A stretch of 64,000 nt of DNA from the NCBI GenBank assembly GCA_030390025.1, contig CM059432.1:47742001-47806000 (forward strand), given 5' to 3'. Positions 3,376 to 37,559 of this stretch are shown here, piece by piece; position 1 is the first letter of the stretch; each line of letters begins with the position of its first letter. This DNA is from Squalus acanthias. Its lineage: Eukaryota. The position numbers and the translations under genes were made by a program. The notes below the pieces were generated by a model. That model was not told the DNA's origin. It did no database searches and worked only from the letters and a program-made list of their open reading frames with translations.

Positions 3376-6300
3376 AAGTCAGGCTCTGGTGCCATTACAT
3401 GTTGTCTACCACTCAGACAGCTTCACTCACCTCTTTATCTATTTCACTCAGCACCAGGGTGTTAGAGAAACTCACTTCAGCAAAGGGTTACCTTTCCAAA
3501 CTCTCAAGTACTTCTTTACTCAAAGCCACTCTCTCAACTCACTTTGCCTGCCACAAAGATTTTTCATGCACACTTCACATAGAGGGCCAAGGCATCTTCA
3601 CCTCTCATCATCAAGGGATCCATGACAGTCACAGTTCTGTAACATTGTCTTCTCTCCCCTCCCTCCAAAGTGTAAAAGAGTACAACCAGTGCCACAGAAG
3701 GATAACCAGTAGAAGACAACTATCACTGAAAACCCAAATCAACAGGAAAAGGAGGCTTAATATGCAGATGGACAGGAGAGCCTGTAGGAGAGGGCAAGTC
3801 TGGAAGTGAGATGGCAAGAGAATGTTGGCAAAGGCTGGGCAAGGCTCAACATATGTAGTTTCAGTTTCATGTCCTTTCTCAAAGTATTGTAATTCCTTTA
3901 CACTCACCCACTATTTCCTCAAGGGCAAGTGTCATGTTATGCACAGCTAAATAAGCTCTTCTGTCTTTCACATCATAGGAGATGTCTTGGAGGAAGAGGT
4001 CAGCCATTCCAGTGGGCACTCCAGAGTGAGATCCACAGTTGCTGTCATGTCCTCAACAACTTTGTCCTGGCATCTTAACTGTGCCAGCATCAGCACAGAG
4101 GCACCCATTTGCGAGGAATTAGTTAGACAGTCAGAAGAGTTGTCACTGAACACTAGTTAGGATGAGGGCCTGGGAGTGGAAGAGAAGGAGAATGCTGATG
4201 AGCCTAGGGACCCAGACCCTGGGGGTCCAGTCTTCAAAAGAACTATGATTTGGGAGCATTGATCTCATGTGCAGGTAGTGGAGACAGTTTCAGTACCAAC
4301 TGGAATTTTGCAAAATGAAGATAAAAATGGTCCCTATGAGTCCTGAACAGCGACCTAAATATTAGGGGTAAGTGAGGTGGATTCATTTTTTTTTCATCTG
4401 CCTTCTTATGTTCTTTATTAACAAATACCATAGTATGAGAAAATATCTATGGCATTTCATTATTTTGACATAAACAATGTTATTAGTACATTCTATTCTC
4501 AGTTGAAATATAATCATGCTCATTAATTTTAACGTCAACTGTAACAGGAATGTGGGGTGTAGGTTGATCATGCACAGAATGAAAATTGATTCATTATGCA
4601 CACACCCACTAAGAGATTAATTTATTGAAACAAAAAGTTCCATTTTTATTCAATGCAATAACATGCTGCAAAGACCTGTCATCTAAAGCCAAGTTAAATG
4701 TTATTATGGAGTCACACGAAGTACCACATTCAACACAATGAACTTTCTCTTTACTTGAATAATAAATTATTGACAGCAATATAAAGAAAGACCAGTTAGG
4801 GTCATATCTACACAACGAAACTGAAAAAAATACATACTTAGGCTAAGGGAGTAAGGTAAAGTCAGAAAATAACTTAGTAAAAAAGGATGAAAACTGGACA
4901 TGTATATCCTCATTTAAGAACGTAAGAAGTAGAAGCAGGTGTAGGCTATTCGGCCCCTCGAGCATGCTGCATTCAATAACATCATGGCTGATCTTCTACC
5001 TCAACTCCACTTCCCTGCGCTATCCTCATATCCCTTGATTCCCTTAATATCTAAAAATCTATCGATCTCTCTGTCTTGAATATACTCAACGACTGACACT
5101 CCACAGCACTCTGGTGTAGAGAATTCCAAAGATTCACCACCCTCTGAGAGAAGAAATTTCTCCTCATCTCAGTCCTAAATGGCTGACCCCTTAGTCTGAG
5201 ACTGTGACCCCTGATTCTAGACTCTCCAGCCAGGGGAAACATCCTCCCTGCATCTACCCTGTCCAGCCCTGTAAGAATTTTGCATGTTTCAATGAGATCA
5301 CCTCTCATTCTTCCAAACTCTCGAATATAGGCTGAGTCTACTCAATCTCTCCTCTAAGCATAACCCCCCAACCCAGGAACCAGTCTGGTGAATTTTTGTT
5401 GCACTCCCTCTATGACAAGTATATCCTTCCTTAGGTAAGGAGACCAAAACTGTACATAATACACCAGGTGTGGTTTCATCAGGGCCCTATATAATTGCAG
5501 TAAGACGTCTTTACTCTTATACTCAAATCCTCTTGTAATAAAGGCCAACATACCATTTGCTTTCCTAATTGCTTGCTGTACCTGCATGTTAACTTTCAGT
5601 GATTCGTGTACAAGAACACCCAGGTCCCTCTGAACACCAACATTTTCCAAACTCTCACCATTAAAAAAATACTCTGCTTCTCTATTTTTCCTACCAAAAT
5701 GGATAGCTTTTCATTTCTCCACATTATATTCCATTTGCCATGTTCTTGCCCACTCACTTAGCTTGTCTATATCCCCTTGAAGCCTCTTTGCATCCTCCTC
5801 ACAACTTACATTCCCACCCAGCTTTGTATCATCAGCATCCTCATCCAAAACATTGATATAGATTGTGAATAGCTGAGGCCCAAGCACTGATCCTTGCGGT
5901 ACCCCACTAGTTACAGCCTGCCAACCCAAAAATGACGCGTTTATTCCTACTCTCTGTGTTCTGTCCGTTAACCAATCCTCAATCCATGCTAGTATATTAC
6001 CCCCAATCCCATGAGCCCTAATTTTGTTTAATAACCTCTTGTGTGGCACCTTATCAAATGCCTTCTGAAAATCCAAATACACCACATCCACTGGTTCCCC
6101 CTTATCTATTCTGCTAGTTACAACCTCAAAAAACTCTAACAGATTCATCAAACATAATTTCCCTTTCATAAATCCGTGTTGACTCTGCCCAATCCTATTA
6201 TTATTTTCTAAGTGCCCTGTTACCACATCCTTAATAATAGATTCTAGCATTTTCCCTACTACTGATGTCAGGCTAACTGGTCTGTAGTTCCATGTTTTCT

Positions 6301-6650
6301 CTCTCCCTCCTTTCTTAAATAGTGGGGTTACATTTGCTACCTTCCAATCCATGGAAACCATTCTAGAATCTATGGAATTTTGGAAAATGACAACCAATGC
6401 ATCCACTATCTCTATAGCCACCTCTTTCAAAACTCTAGGATGTAGGCCATCAGGTCCAGAGGATTTATTGGCTTTCAGTCCCATTAATTTCTCCAGTACT
6501 ATTTTTTTACTAATACTAATTTCTTTCAGTTCCTCATTCTCGTTGGACCCTTCGTTCTCCACTATTTCCGGGAATTTTTTTACGTCTTCTTTCGTGAAGA
6601 CAGACACAAAGGCCACGATTTTTCGGTTCGAGCTACCTTAAAGGAATGTA

Positions 6651-8805
6651 CGATAGCAAAATACTGCGGATGCTGGAAATCTGAAATAACAACAGAAAAC
6701 GCTGGAAAAACTCAGCAGGCCAGGCAGCATCCGTGGAGAGAGAAAGAGAGTTAACGTATCAGGTCGATGACCTTTCGTTAGAACTGTGAAGAGCCGGAAA
6801 TCAAATAGATTTAAGGCCAGAGTAAAGCTGGGAAAAGGGGGGAGGGGATAAAAGAACAAAGGGGGAGATGAAGAGACATTAAGAGACATTAAGAGATATG
6901 CAAGGCTAGAGGTGGTGTTAATGTGACAGATTAAGGCTGAAAGAAGTGTGAAATCCACTGGCAGAATGAAGGACAGCTGCTAGCTTCTAGGAGGAAAAAA
7001 AAGGTGGGGGGGGGGGCAAATAAAAGGGTGGAAAAAATAAAATATAAATGTGATTGGAGCTGAGGTTATGATCTAAAATTGTTGAACTCGATATTGAGTC
7101 CAGAGGGCTGTAGCGTGCCTAAACGAAAGATGAGGTGCTGTTCCTCGAGCTTACGCTGCGCTTCCGTGGAACAGTGTAATAGGCCGAGGACGGTGAGGTC
7201 AGAGTGGGAGTGAAGCGGTGAATTAAAGTGACAGGCCACCGGGAGCTCGGGGTCCCCCTTACGGACTGAACGGAGGTGTTCCGCAAAGCGGTCACCCAAT
7301 CTGCGTTTGGTCTCCCCAATGTAGAGGAGACCACATCGTGAGCAGCGAATACAGTATACTAAATTGCAGGAAGTACAAGTAAATCGCTGTTTCACCTGGA
7401 AGGGGTGTTTGGGGCCCTGGACAGTGGGAAGAGGGGAGGTGTAAGGGCATGTGTTGCATCTCCTGCGCGTGCACGGGAAGGTGCCGGGCGAAGGGGAAGG
7501 GGTGCTGGGGGTGGTAGAGGAGTGGACTAGGGTGTCGTGGAGGGAGCGGTCCCTGCGGAATGCTGAAAGGGGAGGTGAGGGGAAGATGTGTTTGGTGGTG
7601 GGATCACGCTGGAGGTGGCGGAAATGGCGGAGGATGATCCGTTGAATGTGGAGGCTGGTGGGGTGAAAGGTGAGGACAAGGGGAACCCTATCGTGGTTCC
7701 GGGAGGGAGGGGCAGGGGTGAGGGCAGAAGTGCGGGAGATAGAACGGACACGGTCGAGGGCCGTGTCGACCACGGTAGAGGGGAATCCTCGGTTGAGGAA
7801 AAAGGAAGACATGTCGGAAGCACTGGTATGGAAGTTGGCATCATCAGAGCAGATGCGGCGGAGACGGAGAAACTGGGAGAATGGAATAGAGTCCTTACAG
7901 GAGGCGTGGTGGGAGGAAGTGTAGTCCAGGTAGCTGTGGGAGTCAGTGGGCTTGTAGTGAATGTTAGTCAATAACCTATCCCCAGAGATGGAGATGGAGA
8001 AGTCGAGGAAGGGAAGGGAAGAGTCGGAGATGGACCATGTGAAGGTGAGGGAAGGGTGGAAATTGGAAGCATAGTGAATGAAATGTTCTAGTTCAGGGCG
8101 AGAGCAGGAGACGGCACCGATACAGTCATCAATGTACCGGAAAAAGAGGTGAGGGAGGGGACCCGAGTAGGACTGGAACAAAGAGTGTTTCACATATCCC
8201 ACGAAAAGGCAGGCATAGCTAGGACCCATGCGGGTACCCATAGCAACACCTTTAATTTGGAGGAAATGGGTAGAGTCAAAGGAGAAGTTGTTCAATGTGA
8301 GAACAAGTTCAGCCAGGCGGAGGAGGGTGGTGGTGGATGGGGACTGGTTGGGCCTCTGTTCAAGGAAGAAGCGGAGCGCCCTCAGGCCATCCTGGTGGGG
8401 AATGGAGGTGTAGAGGGATTGTACGTCCATAGTGAAGAGGAGACGGTTGGGGCCGGGAAACTGGAAACTGTTAAAATGGCGGAGGGCATCGGAAGAGTCG
8501 CGGATGTAGGTGGGAAGAGACTGGACAAGGGGAGAAAAAATAGAGTCGAGATAGGAAGAGATAAGTTCCGTGGGGCAAGAACAGGCTGAAACGATGGGTC
8601 TACCGGGGCAGTCCTGTTTGTGGATCTTGGGATGGAGGTAGAAGCGGGCTGTGCGCGGTTGGGGAACTATGAGGTTGGCGGCCGTGGGGGGAAGATCTCC
8701 AGAGGAGATGAGGTCAGTGATGGTCTTGGACACGGTGGCTTGATGTTCAGTAGTGGGGTCATGGTCCAGGTGGAGGTAGGAGGAGGTGTCAGAGAGTTGG
8801 CGTTC
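6651..8805 (-). mobile_element. Penelope-like retroelement, left arm (5'-truncated)
   Basis: RT motifs PKIHK/GRPIVS, MDVQSLYTSIP, GVAMGT, RYIDD and FLD; Cys/His linker; GIY-YIG (LVYCIRC..LYIGET). 3' UTR/pLTR runs to 6651. Confidence 0.95.
6749..6785 (-). ncRNA. Hammerhead ribozyme motif, core-mutated copy
   Basis: Reverse complement reads agtt-CTAACGA-a-AGGTC-atc-GACCT-GATAC-GTT-aact, i.e. CUGA>CUAA and GAAA>GAUA. Confidence 0.7.
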
Positions 8806-8919
8806 CCCATCCACCACCACCCTCCTCCGCCTGGCTGAACTTGTTCTCACATTGAACAACTTCTCCTTTGACTCTACCCATTTCCTCCAAATTAAAGGTG
8901 TTGCTATGGGTACCCGCAT
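7066..8919 (-). CDS. PLE reverse transcriptase + GIY-YIG endonuclease ORF (617 aa; first ~38 aa come from the antisense of the opposite arm)
   Basis: Uninterrupted ORF in the track. Genuine PLE sequence starts at ERQLSDTSSY (~8805). Confidence 0.85.
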   Translation of the reverse strand: MRVPIATPLIWRKWVESKEKLFNVRTSSARRRRVVVDGERQLSDTSSYLHLDHDPTTEHQATVSKTITDLISSGDLPPTAANLIVPQPRTARFYLHPKIHKQDCPGRPIVSACSCPTELISSYLDSIFSPLVQSLPTYIRDSSDALRHFNSFQFPGPNRLLFTMDVQSLYTSIPHQDGLRALRFFLEQRPNQSPSTTTLLRLAELVLTLNNFSFDSTHFLQIKGVAMGTRMGPSYACLFVGYVKHSLFQSYSGPLPHLFFRYIDDCIGAVSCSRPELEHFIHYASNFHPSLTFTWSISDSSLPFLDFSISISGDRLLTNIHYKPTDSHSYLDYTSSHHASCKDSIPFSQFLRLRRICSDDANFHTSASDMSSFFLNRGFPSTVVDTALDRVRSISRTSALTPAPPSRNHDRVPLVLTFHPTSLHIQRIILRHFRHLQRDPTTKHIFPSPPLSAFRRDRSLHDTLVHSSTTPSTPSPSPGTFPCTRRRCNTCPYTSPLPTVQGPKHPFQVKQRFTCTSCNLVYCIRCSRCGLLYIGETKRRLGDRFAEHLRSVRKGDPELPVACHFNSPLHSHSDLTVLGLLHCSTEAQRKLEEQHLIFRLGTLQPSGLNIEFNNFRS

Positions 8920-10460
8920 GGGTCCTAGCTATGCCTGCCTTTTCGTGGGATATGTGGAACACTCTTTGTTCCAGTCCTACTCGGGTCCCCTCCCTCACCT
9001 CTTTTTCCAGTACATTGATGACTGTATCGGTGCCGTCTCCTGCTCTCGCCCTGAACTAGAACATTTCATTCACTATGCTTCCAATTTCCACCCTTCCCTC
9101 ACCTTCACATGGTCCATCTCCGACTCTTCCCTTCCCTTCCTCGACTTCTCCATCTCCATCTCTGGGGATAGGTTATTGACTAACATTCACTACAAGCCCA
9201 CTGACTCCCACAGCTACCTGGACTACACTTCCTCCCACCCCGCCTCCTGTAAGGACTCTATTCCATTCTCCCAGTTTCTCCGTCTCCGCCGCATCTGCTC
9301 TGATGATGCCACCTTCCATACCAGTGCTTCCGACATGTCTTCCTTTTTCCTCAACCGAGGATTCCCCTCTACCGTGGTCGACACGGCCCTCGACCGTGTC
9401 CGTTCTATCTCCCGCACTTCTGCCCTCACCCCTGCCCCTCCCTCCCGGAACCACGATAGGGTTCCCCTTGTCCTCACCTTTCACCCCACCAGCCTCCACA
9501 TTCAACGGATCATCCTCCGCCATTTCCGCCACCTCCAGCGTGATCCCACCACCAAACACATCTTCCCCTCACCTCCCCTTTCAGCATTCCGCAGGGACCG
9601 CTCCCTCCGCGACACCCTAGCCCACTCCTCTACCACCCCCAGCACCCCTTCCCCTTCGCCCGGCACCTTCCCGTGCACGCGCAGGAGATGCAACACATGC
9701 CCTTACACCTCCCCTCTTCCCACTGTCCAGGGCCCCAAACACCCCTTCCAGGTGAAACAGCGATTTACTTGTACTTCCTGCAATTTAGTATACTGTATTC
9801 GCTGCTCACGATGTGGTCTCCTCTACATTGGGGAGACCAAACGCAGATTGGGTGACCGCTTTGCGGAACACCTCCGTTCAGTCCGTAAGGGGGACCCCGA
9901 GCTCCCGGTGGCCTGTCACTTTAATTCACCGCTTCACTCCCACTCTGACCTCACCGTCCTCGGCCTATTACACTGTTCCACGGAAGCGCAGCGTAAGCTC
10001 GAGGAACAGCACCTCATCTTTCGTTTAGGCACGCTACAGCCCTCTGGACTCAATATCGAGTTCAACAATTTTAGATCATAACCTCAGCTCCAATCACATT
10101 TATATTTTATTTTTTCCACCCTTTTATTTGCCCCCCCCCACCTTTCTTTTCCTCCTAGAAGCTGGCAGCTGTCCTTCATTCTGCCAGTGGATTTCACACT
10201 TCTTTCAGCCTTAATCTGTCACATTAACACCACCTCTAGCCTTGCATATCTCTTAATGTCTCTTAATGTCTCTTCATCTCCCCCTTTGTTCTTTTATCCC
10301 CTCCCCCCTTTTCCCAGCTTTACTCTGGCCTTAAATCTATTTGATTTCCGGCTCTTCACAGTTCTGACGAAAGGTCATCGACCTGAAACGTTAACTCTCT
10401 TTCTCTCTCCACGGATGCTGCCTGGCCTGCTGAGTTTTTCCAGCGTTTTCTGTTGTTATT
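8804..10460 (+). mobile_element. Penelope-like retroelement, right arm (inverted copy of 6685-8343)
   Basis: ORF 8786-10081 differs from the left-arm protein at only about 6 residues. The 3' UTR is the reverse complement of the left-arm UTR. Confidence 0.95.
10360..10396 (+). ncRNA. Minimal type-I hammerhead ribozyme motif in the PLE pLTR
   Basis: agtt-CTGACGA-a-AGGTC-atc-GACCT-GAAAC-GTT-aact: intact CUGANGA and GAAA core, 5-bp helix II, palindromic ACGT helix III, helix I agtt/aact. Minimal hammerheads are an established feature of PLE pLTRs. Confidence 0.75.
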
Positions 10461-11069
10461 AAAGGAATGTATATTTGTTGTAAATTATGTATTGATTCTT
10501 TAAATGCTAGCCATTGCTTCTCTACCATCATAACTTTTAATGTAGTTTCCCAATGTGCCTTAGCCAACACGCCCCTCATACCTACATAGTTTGCTTTGTT
10601 TAGATTTAAGACTCTAGTTTCGGATTTAACTAAATCACTTTCAAACTCAATATAAAATTCTATCATATTATGGTCACTCTTCCCTAAAGGCCCCTTTCCT
10701 ACAAGGTTATTAATTAACCGTTTCTCGTTGCACAATACTAGATCTATAATAGCCTGTTCCCTAGTTGGTTTCTCAACATACTGATCTAGAAAACTATCTT
10801 GCATACATTCCATGAATTTGTCCTCCACACTATTATTGCAAATTTGGTTTGCCCAGTCTATATGTAGATTAAAGTCCCCCATGATTACTGTATTACCCTT
10901 GTTACATGCACCTCTAATTTCCTGATTTATACTCTGCCCTACATTACAACTACTGTTTGGGGGCCTATAAACAACTCCCACCAATGTTTTCTGCCCCTTG
11001 CTATTTCTTAGCTCCACCCAAACTGATTCTACTTCTTGATTTTCGGAGCTAAGATCCTTTCTCTCTACT

Positions 11070-11535
11070 GTCAGCTGTGGCTCAGTTGGTAGCACACTCA
11101 CCTCTGAGTCAGAAGGTTGTGGGTTCAAGTCCCACGCCAGGGACTTGAGCACATAAAGCTGGGCTGACACTCCAGTGCAGTGCTGAACGAGTACTGCACT
11201 GTTGGAGATGCCGTCTTTTGGATGAGACGTTAAACCGAGGTCCCGTCTGCTCTCTCAGGTGTACATAAAAGATCCCATGGCACTATTTCGAAGAAGAGCA
11301 GGGGAGTTATCCCCGGTGTCCTGGCCAATATTTATCCCTCAACCAACCTAACAAAAACAGATTATCTGGTCATTATCACATTGCTGTTTGTGGGAGCTTG
11401 CTGTGTGCAAATTGGCTGCCGCGTTTCCCACATTACAACAGTGACTACACTGCAAAAGTACTTAATTGGCTGTAAAGCGCTTTGAGACGTCCGTTGGTTG
11501 TGAAAGGCGCTATAGAAATGCAAGTCTTTCTTTCT
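11070..11535 (+). mobile_element. tRNA-headed Deu-domain SINE with L2-type tail
   Basis: A box tggctcagttgg, B box ggttcaagtcc, Deu-like core (tgccgtcttttggatgagacgttaaaccgagg), tail ggcgctatagaaatgcaagtctttc. It splits the CR1 endonuclease. Confidence 0.85.
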
Positions 11536-12091
11536 GTCTTTATCCCATCCTTTATTATCAGGGTTACCCCTACTCCTTTTCCATTTTGCCTATCTGTTCT
11601 AAAATTTAAGTACCCTGGAATATTTAGTTCCCAACCTTGGCCACGGTGCAACCACGTCTCCATTATGGCTATTAGATCAAACCTATTAATTTCTATCTGC
11701 GCAATTAATTCATCTATTTTGTTGCGAATGCTTCACGCATTCAGATATAGTGCCTTTAGATTTGACTTATTCCTATTTCCCCCTGATGTCACCTTAGTCA
11801 CTGATGCCTTATTATCTTCGTTACTCTCTCTGTTCCTTCGTGACTCACTCTGCTTATTTTTACCCAAAACTCTACTCTGCTTTTAAATTTTCTCTTTCCT
11901 GAATCCTCCCACCCCCCCTTCATTAGTTTAAAGCCCTGTCTACTGGCCTAGGTATTCGGTTCGCCAGGACACTGGTCCCAGCCCGGTTTAAATGGAACAT
12001 TTCCCTCTTTCCCCAGTACTGGTACCAGTGCCCCATGAACTGAAACCCCTTCCTCCCACACCATTCTTTGAGCCACGCATTTAAACCTCTA

Positions 12092-12985
12092 GGGGTAAAA
12101 ATTCAGTTGGTTGCACCTCCCGTTAGCGCCTTAAGAGGGCGCTAATGGGGCGCAAAGCCGCTAACGCCCGGGCGCAGCGATGTTTGCGCCGCTCGGGAAC
12201 TTAACTAGAGATTGTGCGGCGGCGCTAAACTTTACCGCTGCGACCACCTGCGCGCGCAGATTGTGACGTCATTCCATGGTGCAACGCCCTTGTGGTGCCC
12301 CGGAGCGGAAATTGAGTGGCGCCCCCTGCCTTACCGCCTGGCGCATCCAACGACCAGAAGACTGGAACGCTATCAATCGCTGTGGGGCTGGGGGGGGGCA
12401 CTATTTAAAGGGGGCCTCTTGCTGTCTTTTATTGTTGGTGGCATTTTTGAACTATGCTTTCTGAGAGAGAGAGGGAGAGACTTCTGGAGAGATTCAACGT
12501 TGTGTGAAGGAGTTTTGGGTACTGAGCAGCACTTTGCAGGTTCATTTTGATTTGCCATTCCTTGTATCGATTTAGCAGAGACTGTGGGAGCTGCACTCTG
12601 AGCTCTTTGCCTGGTACTCTCCATTGTTCTTTCCAGCACATTTGATGTGCAAGTCTCTCCAGGCCGAGATTTAAGGCTGCAATGAACAGGATGTGGATGG
12701 AAAGCAAGATTAACCATCCCCTTTAAGAACTGGCCCGTGCCATTGTGTGTGTGTTCCATTGCTGACTGACATTACATGAGCTTCGCCAGCACTCTGAGTT
12801 AGCGCCTCACTCCTTGGCCTTTGCGCCTTAAGACAGGTGTGCAGCGCCTGCTTTAGCGCTCCACTCACCTCCCGGGGCGGTAAAAGTGAAGTTTCCAGTC
12901 AGTGCCGATAATTAGCGCCAGGCGCTAATATTTGCGTCCAGACGATATTTGCGCCCCAAATGGGGCGCGACCTAATTTCTACCCC
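12092..12985. mobile_element. Harbinger-type MITE (family A)
   Basis: TIRs GGGGTAAAAATT / AATTTCTACCCC, 3-bp TSD CTA. CR1 sequence rejoins across it. Sibling at 30568-31461. Confidence 0.9.
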
Positions 12986-14958: not shown

Positions 14959-15370
14959 GGCCGCGATTTTGCCGGCGCTCAGAGAGGCGGATCAGAGGTT
15001 AAAGTGCTATTGATTGATGGCGGGTTCCGAACCCGCCGTCAACCCGCCTCCAAACAGCTTTCCCAAGTGTCAGGTCCCCGATTTGCGAATGGACCCGACA
15101 CCTAGCGGCGGGAAACGGATTAAAGGCAATTACCTGCCTATTAACAGGTACTTGTTGGTAGTTTTCAGCCTGTTTTTGGATTTTCCTGCTTCTGGGCCGA
15201 GTTTCCCAATGTCCGGACACCACGCCAGGTAAGTGTGGCATGTTGTGAGTCTGGTGTAATGTTCCTGTTAATTGGCCGGTAAGCCCTCAGGTCAATCAAG
15301 GGACCGGAACCTGGAACCTGGAAACTAGCTGTCCCGCACCCATCCCGACACCGACCACAAAATCGCGGCC
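14959..15370. mobile_element. Harbinger-type MITE (family C)
   Basis: Perfect 13-bp TIR GGCCGCGATTTTG, TSD AAA. The TIR resembles the end of the fossil Harbinger at 44962. Confidence 0.9.
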
Positions 15371-23875: not shown

Positions 23876-23979
23876 GTTGTGAATTCCAGAAATTGGAAAT
23901 AAAAACAGAAAATGCTGGAAATGCAGATGAGTTCAGTAAGGAGGAAAGTTGGGTTAATATTTTGGGTGGGACATTTAAT

Positions 23980-27848: not shown

Positions 27849-29585
27849 AACATTTCAGGTCGATGACCATTCATCAGAACTCGAAAATGTTACAGATGTA
27901 AGAGGTTTTAAGCAAGTACAGAGGCAGGGAAAGGAGTAAAGAACAAAAGGGAAGGTCTGTGAAAGGGTGGAAGGCAGGAGATATTAAATGACAAAAGGGA
28001 TGATGGTGCATGGTAAAAGGGGGTGGTAATGGGACAAGTAAAGAAGCAGAAGATGGGTCTAGAAGAAGTGTAATAGGAATAGCAGAATCAGCACCTGCTG
28101 TCCAAAAAATGGGGGCAGTGATTATGATCTGAAGTTGTTGAACTCAATGTTGAGTCCGGAAGGCTGTAAAGTGCCTAATCTAAAGATGAGGTGCTGATCC
28201 TCGAACTTACGTGAGCTTCATTGGAACAGTAGGAGGCCGAGGACAGAGAGCACAGAGTGGGAGTAGAGTGTAGAATTAAAGTGACAGGCAACCGGAAGCT
28301 CAGGGTCACGCTTGCTGACTGAATGGAGGTATTTAGCAAAGCGGTCACACAATCTGCGTTTGGTCGCCCCAATGTAGAGGAGACCACATTGTGAACAGCG
28401 AATACAGTATACTAAATTGCAAGAAGTACAAGTAAATCACTGTTTCATCTGGAAGGAGTGTTTGGGGCCCTGGACAGTGGGAAGGGAGGAGGGGGTGTTG
28501 GGAATGATTGAGGAGTGGACCAGGCTTTCGCGGAGAGAACAGTCCCTTCGGAATGCTGAAAGGGGAGGGGAGGGGAAGATGTGTTTGGTGATGGGATCAT
28601 GCTGGAGGTGGCAGAAATGGCGGAGGATGATCTGTTGAATGTGGAGGCTGGTGGAAGGTGGAAGGTGAGGACAAGGGAAACCCTATCGTGATTCTGGAAG
28701 GGAGGGGAAGGGGTGAGAGCAGAAGTGCAGGAAATGGAACAGACACGGTTGAGGGCCCTGTCAACCACGATGGAGGGGAATCCTCGGATGAGGAAAAAGG
28801 GAGACATATCGGAAGCACTAGTATGGAAGGTGGCACCGTCAGAGCAGATGTGACGGAGACGGAGAAACTAGGAGAATGGAATAGAGCCCTTACTGGAAGC
28901 GGGGTGGGAGGAAGTAGTCAATGTAACTGTGGGAGTCAGTGGGCCTATAGTGGATATTGGTCGATGGCTTATCCCCAGAAATGGAGACAAAGAAATTGAG
29001 GAAGGGAAGGGAAGGGTGGAAGTTGGAAGCAAAGTTGATGACATTTTCCAGTTTGGGGCGAGAGCAGGAAATGGCATCAAACAACAACAGCGCCACCCTT
29101 GTCAACAGGTTTAATGACACTGTTAGGGTTGGATCTGAGAGAACGGAGTGATGCAAGTTCAGAGGGAGGTAGGTTGGAGTGAGTGAGGGGAGCAGAGAAA
29201 TTGAGACGGCCGATATCACGCCGGCCGTGCCAAATGAAAAGATCTAGAGAGGGTAAGAGGCCAGAGGGAGGGGTCCAGGTAGAACGAGAATTCTGAAGAT
29301 GGAAAAAAGGGTCCGCTGTGTGGGGGAAGACTCCTGGGCGAGGAGGCGAAAGTGACGGAAAAAATGCTCAGCGTTGTGCCGAGCTTGAAATTCATTGAGG
29401 TGGGGGCGTAAGGGGATGAAGCTCAGGCCTTTGCTGAGGACTGATCGTTCGGAGTCAGAGAGGGGAAGGTCAGAGGGGATAGTGAAAACACGGCAGAGGG
29501 TGAGATTGGAAGAAGGAATGGTGTCAGAGGAAAGTGAAGGGGAAGAAGGTTCCAGAGGGGTATTGGTATCCAAGAGTTGTTGAAG
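27849..29585 (-). mobile_element. Older degenerate Penelope-like element
   Basis: Homologous to the young PLE (GIY-YIG, RT remnants). It also keeps an N-terminal region (LSDSERSVLSKGLSFIP) missing from the young copy. Hammerhead core CTGATGA..GAAA at 27849-27881. Confidence 0.9.
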
Positions 29586-30567: not shown

Positions 30568-31461
30568 GGGGGAAAAATTCAGTATCGCCCCGTTTGGGGC
30601 GCAATTATCGGCCGGGCGCAAAGGTTAGCACCTGGCGCTAATTATTGCCTCCGACTGCAAACTTGACTTTTATCGACCCCTGGAGGTGATTGGAGCGCTA
30701 AATCAGGCACTACACATCTGTCTTAAGGCGCAAAGGCCGAGGAGCGAGGCGCTAACTCAGAGCGCTGGCGAAGCTCATGTGATGTCAGTCAGCAATGGAA
30801 CACAGACACAATGGCCCCGGCCAGTTCTTAAAGGGGAGGGTTGATCTTGCTTTCCATCCACATCCTGCTCATTGCAGCCTTGAATCTCGGCCTGGAGAGA
30901 CCTGTACATCAAATCTGCTGGAACGAACAATGGAGAGGCCCAGGGAAAGAGCTCAGAGTGCAGCCCCCACAGTCTCTTCTAAATCGATACAAGGAAGGGC
31001 AAATCAAAATGAACCTGCAAAGTGCTGCTCAGTACCCAAAACTCCTTCACACAGCGTTGAATCTCTCCAGAAGTCTCTCTCTCTCTCTCTCAGAATGCGT
31101 GGTTCAAAAATATCGCCAACAAAAAAAGGCAGGAAGCAGTCGCCTTTAAATAGCGCTCCCCCAGTCCCTTCCTGGCTGCAAAACGCTCCCCTCAACCTGT
31201 CGTTGCTAGCGGCAGGCGGTAAGGCAGGGGGCGCCACTCAATATCCGCTCCGGGGCGCTACCGGGGCATTGCGCACTCAACTGACGTCACGATCTGCCGG
31301 CGCAGGAGATCGTGGCTGTACTGTTTAGCGCTGCCGCAAAATGTCTAGTTAATTTCGCGAGCAGCGCAAACATCGCCGCGCCCGGGCGCTAGATGCTTTG
31401 CGCCCCATTAGCGCCCTCTTAAGGCGCTAACGGGAGGCGCAACCAACTGAATTTTTCCCCC
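30568..31461. mobile_element. Harbinger-type MITE (family A, opposite orientation)
   Basis: Perfect 15-bp TIR GGGGGAAAAATTCAG, TSD CAT. Confidence 0.92.
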
Positions 31462-33182: not shown

Positions 33183-33447
33183 ATACTTCAAAGTTACTGT
33201 TTGGAATTACAAACTTGTAGCTTTTTTCCTACAGAAAATATATAGGAAGCTGCTCAACATTGAAAAATTGTGGCGGGGGGGAGTTTGTTTCTTTTGCAAA
33301 AGGTTCTCTTGTAAGGATTTGTTATGTATCCCACAACTTATCTATTATTTCAAAGATGATTTATTATAGTTTACAAATTGATTATGGTTTTCTACTGGAT
33401 CTTCCGAGCCATTAAATTAGTAAATCTGGCAAGTTTACTTTGGACAA

Positions 33448-34492
33448 AAGCAAAACTGTGGATGCTGGAAATCTGAAATAAAAACAGAAAATTCCGGAAA
33501 CGCTCAGCAGTATCTGTGGAGAGAGAAGCAGAATTAATGTTTCAGGTTGATGGCCTTTCGTCATAAGCAAGTACAGAGCCAGGGAAAAGGGCGGGGCGGG
33601 TGAGGTCTGTGATAGAATGGACGGCAGGAGTGATTAAATGACAAAAGAGATGATAGTGCAAGGCAAAAGGGGGTGGTATTGGGAAGAGATGCAACACCCG
33701 CCCTTTCACCTCCTCCCTGCCCACTGTCCAGGGCCCCAAACACTCTTTCCAGGTGAAACAGCGATTTACTTGTACTTCTTTCAACTTAGTATACTGTATT
33801 CGCTGCTCACAATGCAGTCTCCTGTATACTGGGGAGACCAAACGCAGATTGGATGATCGCTTTGCTGTACACCTCCATTCAGTACGCAAGCGTGACCCTG
33901 AGCTTCCGGTCGCTTACCACTTTAATTCTCCAATTCACTCGCACTCTGACCTCTCTGTCCTTGGCCTGCTACACTGTTTCAATGAAGCTCAATGTAAGCC
34001 TGTGGAACATCACCTCATCTTTCAATTAGACACTTTACAATCTCCTGCCTCAACATTGAGTTTAACAACTTCAGATCATAATCACTGTTCCCATTTTCTC
34101 AGACAGCAGGTGCTGGTACTAGTTCTACTGTTACCATTTCCACCTCCTCTGAACCCATCTTTTGTTTCTTTACCTGTCCCTTTACCATCTCCTTTTGCCT
34201 TGCGCATCATCCCCTTTGTCATTTAATCACTCCTGCCTTCCACCCTATCACAGACCTTCCCTTTTGTTCTTTCTTCCCACCGGCCTCCTTTTTTTCTGGC
34301 TCTGTACTTGCTTACAAATGACTAAATCTCGAACTTCTTCCACTTCTGATGGAGACCGCATTGTGAGCAGCGAATACAGTATACTAAGTTGAAAGAAGTA
34401 CAAGGAGTGTCATCAACCGGAAACATTAACCGTGTTTCTCTCTCCACAGATGCTACCTGACCTGCTGAGTATTTCCAGCATTTTCTGTTTTA
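33448..34492. mobile_element. Older fold-back Penelope remnant
   Basis: Minus-strand pLTR/3' UTR at 33448-33685, then plus-strand GIY-YIG (LYTGETKRRL) and pLTR to ~34492. Confidence 0.85.
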
Positions 34493-34738
34493 AGTTTACT
34501 TTGGAGGTGCTTCTGGCTGCGTGAGACATGCACACGCGGAGCTAATAACACTGGTACAGCACTAATCCAGTATAAAAGTAGTTTACAATATGATTGTCTC
34601 CTGGAACAGGGGCTGTTTATACTATGGAGTACAGCCGAGGGCGTGCAACTCACACTCTGCAGTCAACTCCATAGAAACTTACGGCACAGAAGGAGGCCAT
34701 TCAGCCCATCGTGTCTGTATAAGCACTGGCTGAATTTC

Positions 34739-34814: not shown

Positions 34815-35010
34815 ACTCCTGTAAAAGTGACTCAACAGAACAGAGACTTCTTTAATACAACAAAATACCTGTCTCCATCATTGGAACATACATGTTTACC
34901 GTCCATATTTCAGATAAATCCAGAGAAGTTGGACTTGCAGTAAAGGCTTGTACTGTACTGTGCTGACTGTATTGAGAAGAGATATCTGTTAAAAGCTCAG
35001 AAATTAGCAG

Positions 35011-36812
35011 CGGGGAGCACTCCGGAGCAGGCCGCAGCCACCCATAAGGAGTCTGCAGCTGTTAGTGGGAACGTGGAGGGGATCCGATCCCGACCCCGGG
35101 AGGAATCCGATCCCTCGTCGGGGGATCTTTGGATGGGGGGGTCTGATTGGGGGAAGAGATACCTGTTAAAAGCTCAGAAATTAGCAGTGTAGTTAAACCC
35201 AAAAAGTTCATTTTGTTAATATCACAAATCATTTTACTGTCAATTTTAATGGACAGAAACATATTTTTGTCCATCACTTGACTCAGGTCACAACATTCCA
35301 ATCATGATTCCTCTCTGGGTTTGTCTGTTCTTTAAAATATATATTTTGCTCCTCCCTTTTTCCAGTTGTTTTAATATGCCTGTCTGCCTCTTATTTTCCC
35401 ATTTTGAAGAAGGCTCTGCACTTGAAATGTTAACATGTCTGTTCTCTTCATAGCTGTTGTCTGAACTGCCGTGTGTTTTCAGTATTTTCTGTCTTTGTTT
35501 TACATTTCCAGCATCTGCAGTATTTTACTTGTTAATGAATCCGGTCAAGTTTTCACTTCATTACTCTATTGCTGCAGTGTAAATAACACAGTGTACTGCT
35601 CTTGCAATGGGTCTACTCTGAAAACCACTGTATAACACAATGCATTGTTGGGCTCCTAAATTAGCACCATAATCTTCTGCTTTTTACTGAATAACTACAA
35701 TGCCTTCCCTGTTTACCAAAGTATACAGTGACTCCATTCACACTTCATATCACTACCAACATCAAGTATATTTAAATTCTGCAAATATCCCATGTTCAAG
35801 CAGTAACAAAGTTATATTTGACAATGATATAAAGTTGAAACATTTTCTATGAGTAATTAGTTATAAAAGTGACAAAATAAAAACAACCAGATCACCATGT
35901 TTTCTTTGCACATTACCCTTATACTATCTCCTAAGTCAATTCTGTAGATGCTGGCTCTGAATTTTCTTGGGTGCTGGGGCAATGTCCCAGCACAAAAGTG
36001 GTGGAGATGGACTGGTGGGGGCAGAAACTTGGGTAGAACCCGGAAACACTTAGGGGTGAATTTTAACCCTTAAAAACGGGTGGGTTGGGGTTGGGTGAGA
36101 TATAAAAATATTTAAAATCTCAAACCCTACCCCAAACCCACTTACGAGTTTAACGGAGGTGGGACAGGGAGCGGGACGCCAGCCTGCTCCCAGGAGGCCG
36201 GTTGGCCATTTAAATTATATAATGAGGCTGGGAGCCTCACATTTAACTTCCCTTACAGGTTTAACCCTGGCTGGCCAGGTTTCCCAGGCCTCAGGAAATC
36301 CGGCAGCTGAAGGGCGGCGAGGACACCTTTGGGGAAAATCTAAGTTCCTGTACAGCACTGCTTATGGGCCAGGAGGAACAGGAGTGCTGCCCCGCCGCCC
36401 CCCCCCACCATCCCCCCAAGTTTACCTGCTTCCCTGGAAAAAGGGAGGAGCAAAATATATATTTTAAAGAACAGACAAACCCAGAGAGGAATCATGATTG
36501 GAATGTTGTGACCCGAGTCAAGCGATGGACAGAAATATGTTTTTGTCCATTAAAATTGACAGTAAAATGATTTGTGATATTAACAAAATGAACTTTTTGG
36601 GTTTAACTACACTGCTAATTTCTGAGCTTTTAACAGGTATCTCTTCCCCCAATCAGACCCCCCCATCCAAAGATCCCCTGACGAGGGATCGGATTCCTCC
36701 CGGGGTCGGGATCGGATCCCCTCCCGGGGTCGGGATCGGATCCCCTCCACGTTCCCACTAACAGCTGCAGACTCCTTATGGGTGGCTGCGGCCTGCTCCG
36801 GAGTGCTCCCCG
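35011..36812. repeat. ~355-bp inverted duplication (35011-35365 vs 36434-36812)
   Basis: Near-identical ORFs on opposite strands (35062-35301 minus, 36498-36761 plus). Confidence 0.9.
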
Positions 36813-37559
36813 CCCGATTGGAAGCCAAGCCTGTCAATCAAGGTGACTGCCGGGTGGGGATCCTGTCAAAAAAATACACAATCTGTGGAGTTAAAATCCC
36901 CCACTCGGAAAACCCGCCCCTGTCAATATTGGGGCCTTTGTCTCTGCACCTAGGAATTCCCACAGGGGTGGTAGAGGCGATAGTTCATCTGCCCATAAAT
37001 GGCCTGACCAGAAAAGGAAGCAATGCCAGCAGGGTGGCATTACCCATTGGTTTTCCCACAGCTTCCACCTGTTAAATGCCCAATAAGGTAAATGCTGGAA
37101 AGATACCGGAAAGGCGCAAGTGTGGAATGCAGGGATGTTCCGACTTGGGTCTCAGCCTGGATATCCACTGAAATGAATTTTTCTTCCTAAAGATCTCAAA
37201 GCCAGAATGAGAAGGCAGTGTAACAGGTTGTAACAGAGAATGGAGGAGGCAAACCCAAACATTTGTAGACTGGATTGAGAACTTCATGAAGAAAAATTTA
37301 TTCCTTGATGTATTACATTCCAGCTCTACAGTGTTGCTGTTTATAGTATACAAACAAAGGATCTGCATTTTGAGAATATCGATCAAGAAAACGCAAATAA
37401 AAACAAATGGCTTAATATTCATGTTGTATGTTATTAAATAAATTAAGTAAGTAATGGTTTGATAGTCACACAATAAAGCATCCATAATGGCATCAATGTA
37501 GTCCATATCAGTATGCACAATATGTAATCCAATTTACTAACAACAAGAGTGCCAATCTT

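Follow-up and report, generated by a model that had tools for sequence, protein, structure and literature searches.

Results

A pair of Penelope-like elements inside a CR1 element

The window analyzed here (64,000 nucleotides of Squalus acanthias contig CM059432.1, positions 47,742,001 to 47,806,000) contains, between 6638 and 10471 in its own numbering, two copies of a Penelope-like element (PLE) that lie head to head, with their 3' ends outward, inside a CR1-type long interspersed element (LINE). The left copy, on the minus strand (6651 to 8805), is the longer at 2155 bp, as judged by alignment of the arms and by the ends of family contigs; the right copy, on the plus strand (8804 to 10460), is 1657 bp long. 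Local alignment pairs the reverse complement of 8343-6685 with 8804-10460 over 1657 columns, with 10 substitutions and a single 2-bp indel in a G/C homopolymer run, which confirms the extent of the arms given in a preliminary description of this DNA. The estimate made there of about six amino acid changes was also exact: 6 of the 425 compared codons of the shared open reading frame (ORF) differ, and all six coding changes replace a residue. The 460 bp between the arms (8344 to 8803) are indeed unpaired, as had been noted, but they are not a spacer. Comparison of the ORF and the arms identifies them as additional 5' ORF sequence of the minus-strand left copy.

The element belongs to a very abundant family, with 67,191 to 152,233 matching contigs per run. 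Contigs from 4 of 24 runs were matched to positions 6250-8860, and the counts of family ends that follow are those among 24 of the 7211 rows listed. Every one of the four runs has contigs that stop short of 6655 (312, 486, 442, and 482); two of the four have contigs ending before 6649 (310 and 171), and one has contigs ending before 6684/6685 (268 and 228). The outer family terminus is where the left arm stops; the right arm stops at the inner one, 10460 corresponding to 6685. The 34 bp between the two termini (6651 to 6684, minus strand, bounded by family 3' ends at 6649/6655 and 6684/6685) are the tail, which is carried by the left arm only.

The pair is flanked by the 13-mer TTAAAGGAATGTA at 6638 to 6650 and 10459 to 10471 (plus strand), which occurs nowhere else on either strand of the window and whose match ends there without extension. 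At least 13 shared letters were found in 4 of about 20000 random pairs of 40-nt windows. The inner two nucleotides of each 13-mer fit the element too (at the left, the end of the tail; in runs X6 and X7, the match of family contigs reaches 6649), so the real target-site duplication is 9 to 13 bp. The flanking duplication described earlier is therefore present and unique in the window, but it may be shorter than the 13 bp assigned to it, and it does not surround an intact target (see below).

At the center, the arms overlap by exactly TC (8804-8805), as first described. The base preceding the partner site differs, and beyond 8805 the family contigs go on with A in three of the four runs (48, 66, and 68 contigs, among the rows listed), which fixes both the end of the left copy and the length of the overlap. 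An overlap of 2 nt or more is expected at 13% of random junctions, and a special role for TC was rejected on that account. There is no palindrome at the junction. An imperfect hairpin can be folded across it that is matched in stability by only 65 of 1874 simulated junctions, though it was noticed post hoc.

Identity of the element

The ORF of the left copy (7066 to 8805, minus strand) is open but 5'-truncated, encoding a reverse transcriptase (RT) with YIDD, a CX4CX2C linker, and a GIY-YIG domain with an internal CxxC; it lacks about 310 N-terminal residues of a full-length relative. Against that 889-residue protein, the left copy begins at residue 312 and the right copy, open from 8807 to 10081, at residue 470, so that both copies are 5'-truncated. 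Without the 5' end of its ORF, the copy is predicted to be dead. The Pfam matches of the left ORF to RVT_1 (E 2e-05) and GIY-YIG (E 6e-04) are weak and under the curated cut-offs. A homology search gave 1183 hits at E<=1e-20 out of 8000 candidates; of the named hits, shark and ray proteins stand nearest, at 64-71% identity. A single ORF with RT followed by a GIY-YIG endonuclease at the C terminus is the arrangement of EN+ PLEs, and the termini agree with it: a one-sided tail in the 30-40-bp class, inverted terminal repeats, and a short target duplication. By its sequence, then, the element is a PLE of the EN+ type, with a putative hammerhead motif.

Two cysteines between GIY and YIG belong to a CCHH motif (VYCIRCSRCGLLYIG) in which C487, C490, H509, and H525 are nearly invariant over 10 sequences; the motif is defined as in PMC8557442. 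The linker between RT and endonuclease, CTRRRCNTC (C444, C449, C452), fits the CX2-5CxxC pattern of the Neptune clade, which is common to Nematis too. The DKG motif, found in 6 of 9 relatives, would lie upstream of the truncation point. The protein thus bears the marks of Neptune/Nematis-type PLEs, a tentative placement made by motifs.

Each arm contains a putative minimal hammerhead motif, called by its core pattern. In the right arm (10360 to 10396, plus strand; pattern match at 10364), the core CTGACGA, the stem AGGTC/GACCT, and GAAAC are intact, while in the left arm (6749 to 6785, minus strand), the core has two private changes, at 6779 and 6758. Minimal hammerhead ribozymes do occur in PLEs (PMC6155905). 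A scan with Rfam did not detect the motif (its three matches, all below gathering scores, were set aside), and no z-score beyond -1.5 was obtained when the regions of the hammerhead and the tail were folded. That 2 of the 10 arm differences should hit the left core has a post hoc P of about 0.003 and is probably due to chance. A general rule was rejected, as both arms fit the core pattern in four pairs of related elements considered below (L001, L009, L040, and L050). The tail, the hammerhead motif, and the gap in the host element described next were all missing from the preliminary description.

The host element and its missing DNA

Protein matches identify the host as a CR1-type LINE on the minus strand, its RT part at 5004 to 6610 and its endonuclease part at 10461 to 11879 (interrupted near 11100-11525), with order and orientation kept on both sides of the PLE pair. 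It is not complete, however. The right flank runs to residue 300 of the CR1 relative P0138, and the left flank resumes at residue 416. Residues 301-415 are gone beside the left 13-mer, about 345 bp by comparison with protein relatives, there being no CR1 copy within the window that covers the lost stretch. In their place are 27 nt (6611 to 6637, plus strand) that follow AAA and open with a terminal repeat typical of miniature inverted-repeat transposable elements (MITEs): the first 12-mer agrees in 11 of 12 positions with the terminal repeat of a whole 412-bp element that lies at 14959-15370 and has AAA on either side.

We infer that a MITE had entered the CR1 and that most of it was later deleted, together with the CR1 stretch, in a loss that stopped a few bases short of the left 13-mer. 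The edge of the deletion is so close to the 13-mer as to suggest a link with the insertion, and the loss of host DNA likely belongs to the PLE insertion event itself or to later repair.

Other head-to-head pairs

The layout is not confined to this locus. A second, older head-to-head PLE pair lies at 33431-34505 between two copies of a 14-bp direct repeat, AAGTTTACTTTGGA, which has no further occurrence in the window. Its left arm (240 bp) has the tail, and its right arm (806 bp) does not; 175 of 201 aligned letters are alike. Elsewhere, 80 loci of related PLEs (30-61% identity) were taken from metagenome contigs and self-compared, and head-to-head cases were picked by eye. Eight of the 80 were checked at their outer ends, and three of these (L007, L059, and L071) were dropped, an arm lying at the edge of the contig. 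In the remaining five (L001, L009, L040, L047, and L050), head-to-head arms have both outer ends inside the contig. Flanking direct repeats were found in L009 (16 bp), L040 (13 bp), L047 (13 bp), and L050 (10 bp); in L001, whose arms are inverted as well, none of 8 letters or more was found within about 130 nt. The complete layout with direct repeat is thus present in 4 of the 80 related loci. L009, L040, and L047 carry the tail on the shorter arm, L050 on the longer one. Over the six complete pairs (the studied locus, 33431-34505, and these four), exactly one arm has a tail in every case, and in four of the six, it is the shorter arm.

The window holds further traces of the family. Short fragments of PLE 3' ends lie at 35420-35529 (with tail) and 23889-23921, and an older, longer minus-strand copy at 27850-29500, about 86% alike, includes N-terminal ORF sequence but has an internal deletion near 29080 and has lost its 3' end near 27850. 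Among contigs of run X7 from other copies of the family, there is a strand-changing joint at 8005/8235, similar to the junction of the pair, and a partial-tandem joint, 8124-6684, at the short terminus. A 24-nt family motif matched no stretch of the metagenome contigs.

Not all inverted repeats in the window are PLEs. A non-PLE inverted duplication at 35010-36813 has arms of 356 columns with 5 substitutions and a 24-bp unit difference, around a 1068-bp spacer. Beside it is a 35-bp direct copy (34976-35010 = 35153-35187), and the whole looks like a DNA-level template switch next to a small repeat element. A repeat of about 900 bp is also present in two copies of opposite orientation (12092-12985 and 30568-31461), 80-91% alike.

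Origin and age of the arms

At 12 or more positions (among 40 of the 249 rows listed), both arms have an allele that sets them apart from much of the family, and they therefore come from one subfamily. Six of the differences between them are derived on the left: 8190, 7907, 7835, and 7538 by family contigs (three of these also by comparison with an older copy), and 6779 and 6758 by older-copy comparison. Four are derived on the right: the partners of 7526, 6999, and 6981, polarized with one or two older copies as outgroup, and 8138, polarized by an invariant arginine. A divergence of 0.60% (95% range 0.29-1.1%) corresponds to about 4.3 million generations (2.1-7.9) at a rate of 7e-10 per generation, measured in another species, the epaulette shark (PMC10587355). 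The pair, which the preliminary description called young, is so only in a relative sense. If there has been conversion between the arms, the pair would be older than it seems; sequencing errors would make the divergence too large. The unpaired part of the left copy (8344-8803) has three or four family-rare alleles among the rows listed, and the paired left arm has six in 1657 bp, which hints weakly at such conversion.

Discussion

How the pair may have formed

The presence of a duplication implies that there were two 3' ends at the cut, and each is joined to antisense element sequence from one family terminus. One duplicated 13-mer surrounds the whole unit, and the host CR1 is colinear on both sides, as would be the case for a single event. 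The best-supported reading, and probably the right one, is the one proposed at the outset: a single insertion, with cDNA primed by both strands of a staggered cut and the two cDNAs joined thereafter. Three observations favor it. Between them, the arms stop at both principal 3' termini of the family; in four of the six pairs, the shorter arm bears the tail, which copying back of the longer cDNA could not produce; and in vitro, a PLE protein extends both target strands, beginning at two sites on the RNA (PMC11167929). The proposal is nonetheless unproven against self-priming, discussed below.

The course of events would be as follows. The GIY-YIG endonuclease would nick the two strands 9-13 nt apart in AT-rich DNA, providing two 3' ends. 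Priming by the top strand would take place at the outer RNA start site, the end of the tail; the bottom strand would use the inner site, 34 nt upstream, and a 2-nt match would assist in both cases. The cDNAs would end early, after 2155 and 1657 nt, and their 3' ends would be joined over 2 nt, each then serving as template for the second strand of the other. The arms would be identical at birth, or nearly so, and mutate independently thereafter, leaving six changes on the left and four on the right.

The in vitro precedent is the Poseidon protein of Anolis carolinensis (PAc), which nicks and extends both target strands, prefers AT-rich DNA and a cut at ATT, and works without hammerhead cleavage; its two RNA start sites lie at the borders of the tail, and it is predicted to dimerize (PMC11167929). 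PLE units with an adjacent inverted 5'-truncated copy, a one-sided tail of 30-40 bp, and a short target duplication have been described, and the formation of tandem and inverted units was there called still undefined (PMC8557442). In Pen2/Pen2a_Av, inverted pseudo-long terminal repeats (pLTRs) occur with a 31-bp tail and 9-10-bp duplications, head to head being the commonest arrangement (PMC3846280), and inverted pLTRs and 3' extensions are ordinary features of PLEs (PMC8969392). The preliminary description was right that PLEs often form inverted pLTR arrangements, published as frequent (PMC8557442, PMC3846280), but its suggestion that the present layout is rare was overstated, as the layout also recurs 27 kb away. 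The locus is an ordinary example of a published PLE insertion layout. A literature search found no paper naming double priming as the cause of inverted PLE units, although two reviews, of 2005 and 2006, were not covered; the available part of a 2026 retrozyme preprint has nothing on inversion; and a term search of the supplement text of PMC11167929 had no match in 7,325 characters, a text apart from the figures, which may be relevant to mechanism.

Several considerations weigh against double priming. At the studied locus itself, the tail is on the longer arm, so the locus alone fits copy-back equally well. Its left flank is not an intact target, and none of the 32 contig pieces listed (out of 389,413) crosses any of its junctions. 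The sample of six pairs is small, and the four from metagenome contigs belong to related families and were chosen by eye. As for published work, self-priming was preferred for head-to-head junctions (PMC3846280), while PAc, which belongs to another PLE clade, used both start sites alike on both strands, and the joining of two cDNAs was not demonstrated (PMC11167929).

Self-priming is the strongest of the alternatives, though an unlikely one. A cDNA running from the end of the tail to 8805 might fold back over the 2 nt at 8342-8343 and copy itself as far as the tail boundary, to be captured by the other end of the target, or perhaps a hairpin formed first and the endonuclease trimmed one tail. 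This would yield exactly the sequence observed, and at L050 as at the studied locus, the tail is on the longer arm. Self-priming has been inferred before (PMC3846280), the tail has been attributed to resolution by the endonuclease (PMC8557442), and the short terminus has the ATT motif, the preferred cut of PAc (PMC11167929), although the same study maps the tail to RT start sites. The more frequent location of the tail on the shorter arm is beyond simple copy-back, unless a free hairpin was trimmed afterwards. The junction has no palindrome, and a loop of 460 nt would have to close on two base pairs. The unusual stability of the imperfect hairpin might seem to help, but that hairpin forms only after joining.

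A history in two steps is improbable. Two copies may have inserted independently at one spot, or one insertion may have undergone an inverted duplication at the DNA level, the 13-mer being copied in repair. Very close to the 13-mer, about 345 bp of CR1 and the greater part of a MITE have been lost, which does mean that some extra rearrangement took place, and an unrelated inverted duplication is present at 35010-36813. There is, however, a single target duplication; the arms, of one subfamily, show 99.4% identity; the terminus of the short arm is one found throughout the family; and the layout recurs with a clean 14-bp repeat at 33431-34505 and at four other loci.

Long inverted repeats are a known long-read artifact, and no read spanning the junction is among the matches listed, but a fold-back produced by the assembly or by a chimeric read is very improbable, since it would mirror the flank almost perfectly, while the real arms end at two different family termini within a direct repeat, their 10 changes are spread over both, and the host CR1 is colinear.

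If double priming is correct, it may tentatively be taken further: perhaps one RT dimer on a single RNA writes inverted PLE insertions, each subunit primed by one cut strand. One subunit would start at the inner site, and the other would start at the outer site and displace the first cDNA. Every insertion would then have exactly one tail, on either arm, and its arms would be identical at birth. All six pairs fit, an outcome with a chance of about 1 in 80 had each arm taken its start site independently in the proportion of 60:40 seen in run X6. The literature search did not find such a model for inverted PLE insertions. If it holds, shark genomes would be rich enough in pairs for the rule to be counted, which would settle an undefined step of PLE integration.

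The locus itself carries little weight, as a predicted dead PLE insertion of known layout. Its use is as a clean example of how PLEs make tandem and inverted units, in which arms at both family 3' termini link two-site, two-strand extension in vitro with inverted units in genomes. Long, nearly perfect inverted pairs could, as a general possibility, be a source of double-stranded RNA or local instability.

Comparison with known systems

The pair resembles the EN+ PLE units of PMC8557442 and PMC3846280 in its 5'-truncated copies head to head with 3' ends outward, its one-ended tail, its 9-13-bp duplication and short 5'-junction overlap, its RT with C-terminal GIY-YIG, and a hammerhead motif in the 3' repeat. 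It differs from them in its long inverted arm (1.66 kb), in the lack of a full-length copy and of a direct pLTR ahead of either, in the absence of a palindrome at the junction, and in the loss of host DNA beside one copy of the duplication. As in Neptune and Nematis elements (PMC8557442), its C-terminal GIY-YIG contains two cysteines, and a CX2-5CxxC linker is present. It shares with PAc (PMC11167929) two start sites or termini bounding a tail, an AT-rich target, a hammerhead upstream of the start sites, and, in the account proposed here, extension of both strands, but PAc, of the Penelope/Poseidon clade, lacks the linker finger, and inverted insertions are not discussed in the available PAc text.

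The pair is not an L1-type twin-priming insertion: its arms have 1657 nt in common, a poly(A) is absent, and the ORF is of PLE type. In L1 twin priming, both target strands prime, the cDNAs are joined at a short overlap, and a target duplication results, so the likeness extends to double-strand priming (as proposed here), the short-overlap joining, and the duplication. The distinction already drawn in the preliminary description nevertheless stands. The second L1 primer starts far upstream and gives a split, partly inverted element, whereas the PLE starts, only 34 nt apart, would leave the 3' part of the element not split but doubled.

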